Shown here piece by piece: positions 6,674 to 51,860 of a stretch of 64,000 nucleotides of DNA (position 1 is the first letter of the stretch; each line of letters starts with the position of its first letter). A program made the translations under genes and the position numbers. Source of the stretch: Eledone cirrhosa (lineage: Eukaryota); assembly GCA_964016885.1 (NCBI GenBank), contig OZ024740.1, forward strand, positions 437,038,001 to 437,102,000, given 5' to 3'. The notes below the pieces were generated by a model. It saw nothing but the letters and a program-made list of their open reading frames with translations, was not told the origin of the DNA and searched no databases.

Positions 6674-6724
6674 AGATTCCTGATGATTTCTAATGAATGA
6701 AACAGTTCTAGTCCTGTAGAATCT
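6674..6724 (+). ncRNA. Type I hammerhead ribozyme (family B) in a PLE pLTR-like repeat at ~6250-6807
   Basis: agattc CTGATGA tttc-taat-gaat GAAA cag-ttctagtc-ctg TA gaatct; 6-bp stem I, GUA cleavage triplet. Confidence 0.88.
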
Positions 6725-45402: not shown

Positions 45403-48308
45403 ATCCTTTGGGAGGGTCATGTTGCCAATAAGAAACACACGCACCAGTTGCTTTCACTTCAATTTATTATAATAAATTTATAAATTTATAAATTTTATAA
45501 TCCCTCCGATAAGTCGTTCGACCTGCGACGAGTCCACGCCTCGACTTTAGCTTTTAACAAATGCACGCAATTGCCGTCGCAGGTCGATGAACAAACAGAG
45601 GCACAAATTAGTATAGCTAGATCTAAACTTAGAAATATTATAGAACAGTATAGCAAGAAGCATAATAGAATGGAGGCCCAGCAACTGGGAGAAAAACTGA
45701 AAATGGCTTGCGTAAGCTCATGCAGCGCTCGCGTAATGGAGAGATAGCATGCTTTCCAACAGACAAGTCTGACAGAATGTCGGTTGACAGTCTGCCAAAC
45801 TACATCCAGGCAATGCAACCCCACATCACTAACACAAGAGAAGTAACACCACAAGAGCAAGAGGATAGAGAAAAAGCCCTCAATGCCCATATGATGATGT
45901 GGACAAATATAATGCAGCCCAACAAAAGGACTGCCAACAACTTCCAGGCCTGGAGCAATGACGTGCCAGCGTTGTATGGGCTTCGAAAAGACCATACAAC
46001 GAGCAGTGACCCTGTCACAGGACCACCAACACGGCCAGTCTGTGGAGCTAACATTGCTAGTAACTACAGACTGTCCTACTTCCTCTCCCTGATCATACGC
46101 CCTATCATTGAAATGTCCCCAGATGTATGTGACAGCACGGAGGACCTCCTCAGCAGAATCGGCGTGAGTAAGCGATCTAGGGACCTAACAAACTGCATAA
46201 TAGGTAGTATGGATGTTGTGTCCCTGTATCCATCTATTGACGTGAATTTTGCTGTGGAGAAATGCGTAGAATTGATCAGTGAGAGCAATGTTGAATTCCG
46301 TGGGATTGATACCAGTGAGCTGGGACTCCTCATTAAACTTACCTATAGTAATAATTATCTAGACACATATGACCTTAGCAACCTGTGCCCTACAAGACCA
46401 GCAAGAGGCAGACCACCTACCATTACCTCAATGGCCAAGAAAACCCACACAGATAGATGGAACGGGTGGACCAGAGCCATACGGACACCCGAAAACCACG
46501 ATGAACTAAAGAAAATGATTGCACATGCGGTGGTGGCCAGCATAAAATTAACCCTTAAGGGACATATGTTCAAATTTAATGGAAAAACATATGCCCAAGA
46601 GGAGGGAGCAGCCATTGGTGTTAGCATTGCAGGCGACATAGCTAACCTATTCATGGTATGGTGGGACAGTAGACTTAAACTTAAACTTAAAGAACAATTA
46701 GAAGACCCCTTAACCCTGATAATGTACTCCCGCTACGTTGATGATATAAACATCGTAGTTAAAACACCCCCACTAGAGAACAGTCAGGAATTAGAGAAAA
46801 ACACAATGGAAAGCATCCAGCAAATAGCTAACTCCATCCACCAGAGTATTAGAGTTACTATAGACTACCCAAGCAAACACCCCAACCATCGATTACCTGT
46901 ACTAGACACAGAGCTCTGGTTAGATACCATTAATAACAAAAAACAAATCCTCCATTCCCATTATGCCAAACCCATGACTTCCAAATATCTGATCCACCGA
47001 AACTCAGCTGTTTCGGACCATACCAAAATCAATATACTGATTGCGGATTTGGTACGGGTGATGAGAAACGTGTTCCGCATGTGCAACCCCGAAGAACTAG
47101 AGAGACACATACAACACTTCATCCACCGTATGCAGTTCTCTGGTTACAATCAGAGAGATAAAATCAGATTATATAGAGGAACCAAAACCAAATGGGAAAA
47201 AATGGTAAATAATGACACAAATGGGACCTGCCCTTGTATAGGAGCAAATTTTGGAATAGTATAGAAAGAACTAGGAATAAGGCTAATAGAATAAACTAAT
47301 GGTATGATAGCAATAAATACCAGAGTGTAATGTTCATCGATACAACCCCTAGAGGTGAATTAGCTTACAAATTTAGAAGGGCCATAGATAAACATAAACT
47401 CAATATTAAGATAGTAGAAAGACCAGGTACTTCCATAAAAACACTTATTAGCAAGACATACCCTTTCCAAAGACCTCCCTGTATAGATAAGAAATGTATA
47501 ATCTGTAAATTAAGCCCCCATATTAACTTTAAAACTAGAAATGTAGTATATAGCATAAGATGTACTGAAGGACAATGTAGAGATAAAAATATAGTGTACA
47601 TAGGTGAGACAGCTCGTAGTATAGGGGAACGGATAAATGAACACTGGCGAGACCTTCAAGATAGTAAAGAATCATCTGTACTCTACCAACATGCTAAAAT
47701 AGAACATAAGGGTAAATTAGAGAACATAGAAATAAAAATAGAATCTACACACAGAAAAGACGCAATGTTTAGACAAATCACAGAGGCAATAAACATAAAT
47801 GAATTACAACCAAAATTAAATAGAAAACATGAGTGGAACAGCAACATCACAACTTACAATTAAGGACAAAATGAAAACACACACACATAGAACAAACAAC
47901 CAACCAGTAACATGTAAATAAACAAATGAATAAACGAATATAAACACACACAGACACCTGGATGTAACACATGCGCAAACTAAGCACACAACACACACAC
48001 AAAAACAAGATGGCGTAGGACAGAACAAAGGAGAGGAACAAAAAACAAAGAAAAGAATCCCCAGTCACTGAAGAGGTCACAGAATGTGTGACGAAAGAAC
48101 TTTGACAATAAATAAACAACCATCTGGTTGTGGAACCAACCAACCGGAAATTTATAAATTCCTAAATTTATAAATTTATTATAATAAATTGAAGTGAAAG
48201 CAACTGGTGCGTGTTTCTTATTGGCAACATGACCCTCCCAAAGTATAACAATATCGGTTCCAACACACGTTTTCAGATAAAGAATCTTGCTAAACAAATT
48301 CAGAAACG

Positions 48309-48313
<5 letters not shown>
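45397..48313 (+). mobile_element. Second, 5'-truncated copy of the family-C PLE with inverted pLTR tip
   Basis: 45397-45495 is inverted pLTR; ORF pieces 45708-47264 and 47330-47863 match 9130-11500; pLTR plus tail to 48313; (TA)n flanks. Confidence 0.93.
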
Positions 48314-48340
<27 letters not shown>

Positions 48341-48345
<5 letters not shown>

Positions 48346-48996
48346 GAAAATATATAGCTTTCACCGTATTTTTGACTAAAGGAATTTTAGCTTGATAACG
48401 GGGTTTAGAACCCTCAAATAAATGGAAAAAGGTGAGTATTGACGTACATGGGAGTCGAACCCACATCTGTGGTTATTGCGACCACTGTGCTACCATTATA
48501 CCAACACATCACCCATCTCTTTCCATTCAAATTAGAAACTACATTCTTAGCGAGTTTAAATGGCAAGTAAGTATGTTTTGAAACAGTGAGCGAGTTTGAA
48601 ATTAGAAAATATATAGCTTTCACCGTATTTTTGACTAAAGGAATTTTAGCTTGATAACGGGGTTTAGAACCCTCAGATAAATGGAAAAAGATGAGTATTG
48701 ACGTACATGGGAGTCGAACCCACATACTTACTTGCCATTTAAACTCGCTAAGAATGTAGTTTCTAATTTGAATGGAAAGAGATGGGTGATGTGTTGGTGT
48801 AATGGTAGCACAGTGGTCGCGATAACCACAGATGTGGGTTCGACTCCCATGTACGTCAATACTCATCTTTTTCCATTTATCTGAGGGTTCTAAACCCCGT
48901 TATCAAGCTAAAATTCCTTTAGTCAAAAATACGGTGAAAGCTATATATTTTCTAATTTCAAACTCGCTCACTATTTCAAAACATACTTACTTGCCA
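48341..48996. mobile_element. 259-bp tandem/inverted unit containing a tRNA-like cloverleaf
   Basis: aattagaaaatatatagc at 48341 and 48600; 48723-48996 is an inverted full unit that begins and ends with catacttacttgcca. Confidence 0.85.
48787..48859 (+). ncRNA. tRNA-like structure (not a canonical tRNA)
   Basis: Acceptor tgatgtg/tacgtca, A box tggtgtaatgg, anticodon stem gtggt/accac with 7-nt loop lacking U33, T arm gtggg-ttcgact-cccat; second copy on the minus strand at ~48439-48511. Confidence 0.7.
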
Positions 48997-49295
48997 TATA
49001 TATATATATATATATATATGTCTATATATGTCTATATATATATATATATGTATGTATGTAATAATAATAAATTTGAAGACTAAAATCCAAAGATATATAT
49101 ATGTCTATATATGTATGTATATATATATATATATATTTGTGTCTGTGTGTTTGTATATCTGTATATATATATATATATTTCATTTTTTAATATATTATAT
49201 ATAATATCAGTTTTACGCTTACACATACGTGCATTCGTATAACGGTTTCTGGGCGTTTATATATATATACATATATATATATATGTGTATGTGTG

Positions 49296-49967: not shown

Positions 49968-51860
49968 GATCCTGATAAAATCTAACAAAACAAATAATTT
50001 ATAAGGTATGGAAAAGGACGAATATAATAACCTTATATTGAAAGAACTCAGGAAAAACTACAAAATAACATCAAATGATCTTTCAACGTTAAATAGAGAA
50101 GCTTCTGAAATTATTTATAAATTAGGCATCCAAAATAGGACGGAACCCTTTATACCTAGAAAACCGAAGATTAACCTGAAGGACCACAAAAGAAATTTTG
50201 AAATTGAACTACCAGTCAGACTCATCGCACCATCTAAATCTGACTTAGGCATAATTAGCAAGCATATATTATATAGAATTATACCACTACTTAAAGAAAA
50301 ATCACACCTTAAACTATGGAACGGCACTAATGAAGTTATAGATTGGTTCAATAACATAAAATTAAAACATAACAAAAAATTCATTCAAATGGATATTGCA
50401 AATTACTACTCCTCTATTACCTCTAGCTTACTTAATAAGGCACTTATCTACGCGTCTAAACATACAGACCTATCTAGTGATGAAATGAATATAATTCAAA
50501 CAGCACGTAAAACACTAATAGAATTTAATAATCATCTCCGGACAAGAACCGACAGAAAAACAATTTTGATATGACTATGGGATCATCTGACTCGGCGCAA
50601 CTTACAGACCTCGTTGGATTATTTATTAATAATGTACGGCATAGGAAAATGCCAGAGATGGCCGGAGGTTTATATCTTGACGATATGTTACTTTTAACTG
50701 AAAACCATAGCAATAGTGAAATTAATAGGAAAAGGAAATCCAAAATACAATTTTTTAACAACTACAACCTTAATTTAGAAATCGAGAATAATTACAAAAT
50801 CGTTAACTTCTTAGATGTAACCTTAAACCTTAGCACAGGTCTTTACTATCCTTTCCATAAAATTAACGAAAATCTAAATTACGTAAGTTTCAATTCTAAT
50901 CATCCTAGAAGTATTAAAAACACTATTGTCAATAGCGTCCAGCAACGGATTTTTCGCATCTCTGCTAATAAAAATATTGTTGATGATAAGGCAGAATATT
51001 ACATTGAAGCTTTACATAGAGCAGGATACTCGAGTAAAATTAAATACATAGATAACAATAACATGACAAATCATCCTAAAATTAATTATAATAATAATAA
51101 ACAATTTAACTTAAACACTAAACCAAACAAAAAAACTAGAACTAGAAATATTATTTGGTACTCTCCCCCATTCTCATTAAGCGTTAAAACACCTTTAGCA
51201 AAGCTATTCTTTAAAGCACTAGATAAATGTTTTCCTAAAACCCACAGATACCACTCTATTTTTAAGAGACACACTATAAAACTATCCTACTCTACTACTA
51301 TGAACATTGCACAAAATACAAATAGAAACTTAAATTTAAACCCTAACCAAACTAACCAAAATAGCAATAATAATATTTCTAACAACAATATTCAGAATAA
51401 TAGTACCGTTCCGAACAACAACTCCAGAAAATGTAACTGTAGAATTAAATCAAAATTCCCTTTACAAAATAATTGCTTAGACAAGAACGTAATTTATAAA
51501 TGCACAGTTAAAACTAGAGACAAAGTATTTAACTATATTGGTGCCACTTCTACAAAATTCAAAGAACGCTGGTATAACCATAAACACACATTTAAGAAAT
51601 TCGATAAAAAATCTTCCACTTCACTTTCACATTTAATTTGGAACTAAAAAGACAAAAATATAGACTATTCAATATCTTGGAGAACGATTTCGAAAGCACC
51701 TGCATACCGAAATATGGCTTTCTCAAGATTCTGTAACTTGTGTATCGAGGAAATTTTTTATATAATTAATTGTCAAAACTCTATTAATCTTAAAACAGAA
51801 TTATTTTCTTCTTGCAGACATCGCCAAAATTCGATTTTCAGAAGTATTTTTAATTTATGA
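49968..51860 (+). pseudogene. Naiad-like RT + GIY-YIG, frameshifted
   Basis: INLKDHK..PVRLI.PSKS, DIANYYSSI, TMGS.D.A, GLYLDD, NFLDVTL, WYSPPF, YIGATSTKFKERW. Confidence 0.9.

Follow-up and report, generated by a model that had tools for sequence, protein, structure and literature searches.

A multi-thousand-copy, hammerhead-less repeat of Eledone cirrhosa carries a tRNA-like cloverleaf and is very probably mobilised in the manner of Penelope-like elements

The sequence at positions 48341-48996 of the window (the whole 64,000-nucleotide stretch of Eledone cirrhosa DNA that was analysed) is a real tandem and inverted element and not a local rearrangement. It belongs to a multi-thousand-copy, non-coding repeat which, from the structure of its insertions, we regard with high confidence as a non-autonomous, Penelope-dependent element. 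The family is a real new variant among the retrozymes and the non-autonomous Penelope-like elements (PLEs), in that it lacks a hammerhead and bears a tRNA module. The observations as a whole are best explained by a PLE-copied, hammerhead-less unit in which the tRNA fold is the likely processing site, an explanation that we put forward tentatively, at somewhat less than an even chance.

Unit positions are numbered from u1 = 48738 on the direct arm, so that the cloverleaf occupies u51-u121. The features of the locus, in window coordinates, are as follows.

48311-48341, no strand: left (TA)n target
48341-48725, minus strand: inverted arm, 385 bp or 1.5 units long, running from u95 to u220, with its outer end in priming zone E2
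48440-48510, minus strand: cloverleaf of the inverted arm (ARAGORN, Rfam), with the anticodon CAA owing to a private G>A substitution
48722-48725, no strand: 4-nt overlap at the head-to-head junction
48722-48996, plus strand: direct arm, one 259-bp unit and 16 nt, with its outer end in priming zone E1
48769-48787, plus strand: 5' strand of the 19-bp outer stem
48788-48858, plus strand: 71-nt cloverleaf of the direct arm (ARAGORN, Rfam)
48795-48805, plus strand: A box of the direct-arm cloverleaf
48818-48824, plus strand: anticodon loop with G33, direct arm
48839-48845, plus strand: T loop, direct arm, with A58 at 48843
48861-48879, plus strand: 3' strand of the outer stem, including a T5 run (48868-48872) that resembles a Pol III terminator
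48886-48974, plus strand: three predicted hairpins, H2-H4, kept across subfamilies
48948-48957, plus strand: E2 zone (u211-220), second preferred insertion end of the family
48990-48996, plus strand: E1 zone (u253-259), main insertion end of the family
48996-49019, no strand: right (TA)n target

Within the window, a spacing of 259 separates a direct repeat of 126 nt (98% identity), and there are inverted repeats of 236 nt (98%) and 169 nt (99%). The arms meet with the 4-nt overlap, and (TA)n flanks the element on both sides. This bears out the 259-bp tandem and inverted unit in (TA)n described in an earlier note on this DNA. The terminal redundancy of about 15 nt given there is present as 16 nt on the direct arm (48722-48737 equals 48981-48996); it marks where this arm stopped and is not a feature of the family. 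Five private substitutions are found among the three unit pieces of the window, and the anticodon difference between the copies, correctly noticed before, is one of them.

The mid-unit cloverleaf with its A and B boxes, also reported in the earlier note, is recognised by ARAGORN (48787-48859, plus strand, CGA; 48439-48511, minus strand, CAA) and by the Rfam tRNA model, with 44.3 bits for the plus-strand copy and 38.5 bits for the minus-strand copy at a cut-off of 29. The acceptor stem is indeed extended by its flanks; the extension is 19 bp long, where about 17 bp had been estimated, and follows a 3-nt bulge on the 3' side. Cloverleaf and outer stem together are predicted to fold at -40.7 kcal/mol, as against a minimum free energy of -42.9. 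All six subfamily consensuses (see below) retain the D, anticodon and T stems; the first anticodon-stem pair is mismatched in subfamilies B, C, E and G (one mismatch), and in C the acceptor stem also shows two mismatches at its top. Invariant columns make up 57 of 71 in the tRNA and 67 of 125 elsewhere, a comparison of little power among six related consensuses. The outer stem is predicted to be stronger in the sense orientation (-19.5 to -25.2 kcal/mol) than in the antisense (-14.4 to -17.3 kcal/mol) in 6/6 subfamilies. One of the recurring hairpins outside the outer stem shows a U-A to C-G change, and the folding energy outside the tRNA lies within the range of shuffled sequences (z of -0.6 to -1.6).

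The anticodon is CGA, GGA or GGC according to the subfamily, and the variable loop has 4 nt. An anticodon loop without U33, as first noticed, is true of the window subfamily, which has G33, but not of four sister consensuses, which have U33. Judged from its sequence, with G33 and an anticodon that varies by subfamily, the module is not a canonical functional tRNA gene. The A and B boxes are intact in five of the six subfamilies; in five the tRNA is followed, 10 nt on, by a T5 run, with a T4 later in the unit. The consensus of subfamily D keeps the fold, has a T loop without A58 (and thus a damaged B box) and contains two T7 runs; this subfamily is abundant nonetheless, with 58 arms in the sample. 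In a panel of 35 sequences of few types, the tRNA-Gln scores were 39.5-40.5, while a second tRNA-like repeat scored 36.5-40.

Several other tRNA-like sequences were seen in the genome. A single one (L043; L066:4647-4718) has a similar D arm and the anticodon GGC and is without the unit flanks. A second dispersed family (L133, L135-L143) has a common start with a short hairpin, usually directly after TA and about 305 bp upstream of the tRNA, which scores 53-72 bits with Rfam and has a variable, mostly GGC anticodon; its 5' TC start may be reminiscent of a Helitron. The GGC anticodon is found on three unrelated tRNA-like sequences, namely this second family, subfamily D and L043. Host tRNA-Gln gene clusters lie at G000:C1:168.21-168.28 Mb and at L246, one of them with a 277-bp tandem period.

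In the genome of 3.0 Gb, a 16-mer from the locus has 5,379 exact matches, compared with 3 for its control, and two other exact patterns have 1,290 (control 4) and 1,384 (control 0); such counts may include several matches per locus and give none for diverged copies. A search with the unit yielded 2,071 candidates, of which 40 were scored, the best 30 of these having 96-100% identity. From 189 loci, six subfamily consensuses were built (A, the window type, and B, C, D, E and G), 258-290 bp long and 73-98% alike, with a median copy identity ranging from 97.6% in A down to 90% in D. A metagenome scan for the unit gave 0 matches. An ADAR signature was considered and rejected, as sense A>G changes are not in excess (12, against 26 T>C).

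The longest array observed (L061:1114-8030; G000:C1:131458913-131465827) consists of 25 tandem units and an inverted arm of 1.5 units. Relative to the array consensus each unit carries about 25 substitutions, and non-adjacent units have variants in common, a pattern pointing to probable in-place duplication into a satellite. A sister of this array elsewhere in the genome was rejected, since the closest match outside it (89%, with 40 scored of 3,385 candidates) falls below the 92% and 90% found inside.

The evidence for Penelope-type mobilisation comes from three samples of loci: 29 best-scoring ones, 85 found by a tail motif and 64 found by a tRNA motif, the latter two in chromosomal order and all from contig C1 (of 90 and 69 loci fetched, 5 and 4 were left out because they overlapped and duplicated others, along with one tRNA-like locus that is unrelated). 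The accessible part of Craig et al. (PMC8557442) gives as PLE traits partial tandems, an inverted 5'-truncated copy, a tail of 30-40 bp at one end and (TA)n targets. Here, tandem and inverted arms in head-to-head arrangement are found in 22/29, 55/85 and 40/64 loci of the three samples, 117/178 in all. The outer ends adjoin TA in 47/51, 108/140 and 84/104 cases, compared with 17% of random flank positions. One E1 end (about u253-260) is combined with one E2 end (about u211-220) in 20/22, 48/55 and 26/40 head-to-head loci, and the two zones are offset by a median of 41 nt (39 A-type junctions), so that one end only carries the tail. The earlier proposals of a unit that is PLE-mobilised and unlike ordinary SINEs are thus supported by the genome survey, which found no fixed 5' tRNA head; the contrary case, of a SINE with such a head and a local rearrangement at this locus, did not hold on examination.

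The same samples constrain the template. Arms longer than one unit (15/151 in the tail sample, 40/107 in the tRNA sample) require a multimer or a circle. The allele at u187 is common to the copies within a locus in 79/79 pairs, against 39.7 expected, and such copies nearly always agree at six other variable sites too; each insertion therefore derives from one unit sequence. Since both arms read antisense away from the target, target-primed synthesis implies, and we infer, a template of the tRNA-sense strand.

Flank repeats of at least 10 nt, sought as target site duplications, occur at 13/178 loci, compared with 1% of shuffled pairs, and are mostly microsatellite; three loci have apparently clean target duplications of 12-14 bp. 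Fold-back of a single cDNA as the only source of the inversions was rejected, as the E1 arm is the shorter of the two at the window locus and at several others. At L039:1950-2012, the junction contains several repeats of a 7-nt motif from the E2 zone, resembling telomerase-like stuttering. At L052, L049, L053 and L057 the arms are joined directly to foreign sequence, and such loci, if chimeric insertions, could give a clue to the mobilising family; the fusion partner at L052 has a hammerhead-like motif on the opposite strand.

There is no hammerhead among the 7 Rfam matches of the window element at E<=10, and no ribozyme family of any class among these or among the 69 matches of five loci covering subfamilies B, C, D, E and G. 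A descriptor was also used that allows for the 3:8 covariation of hammerheads given in the accessible text of Cervera and De la Pena (PMC4209133), accepting four 3:8 variants and up to one mismatch; it recovers 11/14 hammerhead-like motifs of the window. On the sense strand of the six subfamilies it finds nothing with up to one mismatch, in keeping with the earlier statement that a canonical hammerhead is lacking. The antisense strand gives two one-mismatch matches (C and G), with 3/60 in shuffles; this core-like motif was dropped, as the descriptor does not accept it in four subfamilies and it is not constant from one subfamily to the next. A hammerhead-bearing ancestor with the same tail was likewise rejected, with 0 genomic matches. 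Elsewhere in the window, hammerhead-like motifs lie at 6680, 8924, 21003, 28993, 30381, 30950, 33009, 40911, 49781, 52977, 55404, 55637, 55687, 57760 and 61152; they lie in short fragments, most of which end in (TA)n some tens of bases downstream of the core.

The genome contains 10,595 GIY-YIG candidates. In 50 of these loci a tail in common with the unit was not recognised, save for a likeness of about 12 nt between the main end of subfamily D and the end of the L247 family. The L247-L294 family (for example L250 and L263) is an abundant, TA-targeted PLE with a C-terminal endonuclease, and is a weak lead as a candidate partner of the unit. The first 30 tail-motif loci are all of the unit family or too short to tell, and L043/L066 was rejected as an autonomous partner, having no long ORF. 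PLE dependence is therefore argued from insertion structure. The window itself holds two frameshifted Penelope-like reading frames, at 45669-47863 and 50005-51647; the former has reverse transcriptase and GIY-YIG matches, with a hammerhead motif downstream at 48068.

The positions at which arms end give an indication of the state of the template RNA. The windows used were chosen after inspection of the data and the arms of one locus are not independent, so that p-values are descriptive. In the tail sample, 47/145 arm 5' ends fall in u106-119, compared with 7.3 expected, a peak that is inflated by three overlapping palindromes at u111-119; of the 68 loci that extend into the zone, 33 end there. 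Adjacent windows are close to expectation (5 against 5.0 expected at u92-105; 11 against 10.2 on the other side), and the edge of the zone coincides with A58 (u106). Many of the T-arm stops are symmetric joins at a 4-nt palindrome, and single-arm and asymmetric copies stop there too. In short-read contigs, the 15 best-supported of 122 joints lie at u106-124; the runs are of one sample, possibly the assembled one, and exclude an assembly artefact only. The sample selected by the tRNA 5' half has no T-arm excess (7 against 5.6 expected).

Subfamily D, which lacks A58, stops less at the T arm than E and G together (3/28 against 15/39; Fisher p=0.013, descriptive as stated), and the A58-bearing subfamilies B and C have T-arm stops in 5/64 passes, in a sample selected for read-through. 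No m1A58 misincorporation is seen (1.5% at A58, against a median of 2.2%). TRMT6/61A methylates T-loop mimics of the GUUCRA type, and m1A can truncate cDNA, according to the accessible portion of 10.1101/202747.

A second excess of ends lies near the tRNA start, at u43-62 (12 against 4.4 expected and 20 against 6.4). Of these 32 ends, about 13 are at u49-53, which fits a cut at +1, and about 9 at u43-47, which fits a Pol III start better, the rest lying 3' of both; few ends are found at u23-42 (1 and 4), and 29/41 arm passes run on upstream of u43. The stops at the T arm and near the tRNA start make it likely that the template RNA folds as a tRNA. The processing by RNase P and RNase Z suggested in the earlier note fares unevenly, since the RNase Z cut-site window has no footprint (11 arm ends against 10.2 expected), while RNase P fits the excess of arm ends around +1. 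Its suggestion of a Pol III-driven element is weakened by the T5 run after the tRNA in five subfamilies and by the abundance of subfamily D.

In the explanation that we prefer, a borrowed Penelope-like reverse transcriptase and endonuclease would copy tRNA-sense RNA into (TA)n. The geometry of the insertions suggests that both target nicks would prime cDNA on this RNA, at E1 and at E2, and that the two cDNA ends would then be joined by microhomology. The tRNA fold would replace the ribozyme as processing site: a transcript that includes two tRNA modules would be cleaved by RNase P at each +1, the 19-bp outer stem would keep the two ends together like a nicked helix ready for ligation, and the circle would be reverse-transcribed past one unit, regenerating the tandems. 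The T-arm stop may come from the folded elbow or from m1A58. RNase P and stem-splinted ligation are preferred because they account for the lack of a hammerhead, for the conservation of the outer stem, for the arm ends around +1 and for the success of subfamily D, which Pol III could scarcely transcribe. That RNase P cutting and circle formation are the main role of the tRNA is possible, and we hold it with reserve; a single haplotype per locus would be expected of a circle and of a homogeneous linear multimer alike. RNase P leaves end chemistry different from that of self-cleavage, so that another ligase would be needed for circles, and a paired leader may hinder the enzyme. Retrozyme circles are closed by a protein ligase after self-cleavage, in the accessible text of PMC7229834; in that of PMC8915964, RNase P cleaves ahead of RNase Z and can usually work with a trailer present.

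The same PLE-type mobilisation could also operate with the tRNA serving mainly as an internal Pol III promoter, for which the schistosome Sm-alpha element is a precedent in the accessible part of PMC6765202. Transcription would start a few bases upstream of the cloverleaf, where the ends at u43-47 and the scarcity of ends at u23-42 would place it, and would leak through T5 to give linear transcripts of more than a unit; tandems would be maintained where transcription passes through tandem copies, by strand transfer or by in-place duplication, and a 25-unit array does exist. The A and B boxes that five subfamilies keep intact agree with this, whereas the T5 10 nt past the tRNA and the later T4 would have to be passed, the majority of arm passes extend upstream of u43, and the conserved outer stem is left without a reason. 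Subfamily D, with its damaged B box and two T7 runs, still gave 58 arms, from which it follows that the tRNA module must do more than serve as a Pol III promoter. We regard a mainly promoter role as somewhat unlikely, and the RNase P and Pol III readings can act together. It is unlikely that the unit is mobilised in this way from Pol II read-through, with a tRNA fold that stays uncut and protects, exports or presents the RNA. The outer stem would then shield it from RNase P and RNase Z and the stops would be plain stalls of the reverse transcriptase, which suits a fold that is kept while anticodon and B box vary, as well as the missing RNase Z footprint; a cutter may not even be needed, as Naiad PLEs and non-autonomous Chlamys make tandems without canonical hammerheads in the accessible text of PMC8557442. 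This leaves unexplained, however, why ends are in excess at the 5' boundary of the tRNA, since the partner strand of the stem has already been copied there and just some of the junctions at this boundary could be stem-mediated.

Outside PLE-type mobilisation altogether, an ordinary tRNA-headed SINE, or a DNA-level satellite or MITE, with the window locus as a local rearrangement, is most improbable. Some single-arm copies do start near the tRNA start, and the L061 array bears signs of in-place duplication. Such an origin is opposed by the head-to-head arrangement of 117/178 loci with recurrent E1 and E2 ends (the position-ordered loci all being on contig C1), by arms that cross the tRNA 5' end into the previous unit and by the lack of an A-rich or LINE-like tail.

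Like the present unit, tRNA-derived SINEs are short, non-coding, retroposed repeats with A and B boxes. They differ from it in that its tRNA is mid-unit, with 29/41 passes running upstream of u43 in place of a fixed 5' head, in its tandem and inverted copies, and in its two priming zones, which join the target TA directly with no fixed 3' tail, LINE-derived or simple-repeat. The likeness to animal non-LTR retrozymes is closer: in the accessible parts of PMC7229834 and bioRxiv 10.64898/2026.07.22.740005 these have a non-coding tandem unit of 150-450 bp (258-290 bp here, with tandems of up to 25 units), low GC and copies of more than one unit, as here, and they co-occur with PLEs and are proposed to be moved by them, as is the present unit. 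Unlike retrozymes, the six subfamilies have no hammerhead and carry instead a tRNA cloverleaf on a long stem; circular RNA has been shown for retrozymes, and for the unit the DNA copies give indirect signs of such an intermediate. The pipeline of the 2026 preprint (bioRxiv 10.64898/2026.07.22.740005) starts from the hammerhead, and its accessible text has no occurrence of 'tRNA'.

The schistosome elements Sm-alpha and Sj-alpha, as far as the accessible text of PMC6765202 and PMC2770079 goes, similarly have a tRNA-derived module in a tandem, non-coding, retroposed unit, and Sm-alpha resembles tRNA-Gln, the host tRNA against which the present module scored best in the small panel. Sm-alpha has an active hammerhead and a tRNA part that acts as Pol III promoter. 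The present unit shares with it the tRNA-derived Pol III boxes in a tandem unit (5/6 subfamilies) but has no hammerhead, has a T5-T7 run past the tRNA and has one subfamily without A58. Naiad PLEs and non-autonomous Chlamys such as MRC1 (PMC8557442, accessible text) also do without a canonical hammerhead and have tandem and inverted insertions with a 30-40-bp tail; the (TA)n targets match the Naiads, and the head-to-tail non-autonomous copies match Chlamys. The accessible text mentions no tRNA module for either. It gives non-autonomous Chlamys 3' ends in common with an autonomous partner, whereas no such partner was found for the unit in the 50 GIY-YIG loci. A literature search, with repeat databases and subscription journals outside its scope, found no tRNA-bearing, hammerhead-less PLE-type unit in the accessible texts, those of PMC6685494 and PMC10275265 included.

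The existence of this family has several consequences. Hammerhead-based retrozyme surveys are blind to it, and tRNA gene counts are inflated by it, since ARAGORN calls most copies tRNAs. Tandem and inverted insertions of Penelope type can evidently persist without a hammerhead, which bears on the purpose of the ribozyme, and thousands of short copies with mapped ends provide a read-out of the poorly understood Penelope priming reaction. The 259-nt unit is small enough for direct tests of RNase P cleavage, ligation and Pol III transcription. In its fullest form, the proposal describes a ribozyme-free class of retrozymes, with an RNase P-cut tRNA mimic, stem-splinted circles, Penelope-like copying and T-arm stops that record tRNA folding or m1A58; this is conceivable but doubtful. 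If true, the ribozyme-free retrozyme would represent a route to animal circular mobile RNAs that is hidden from ribozyme-based searches.
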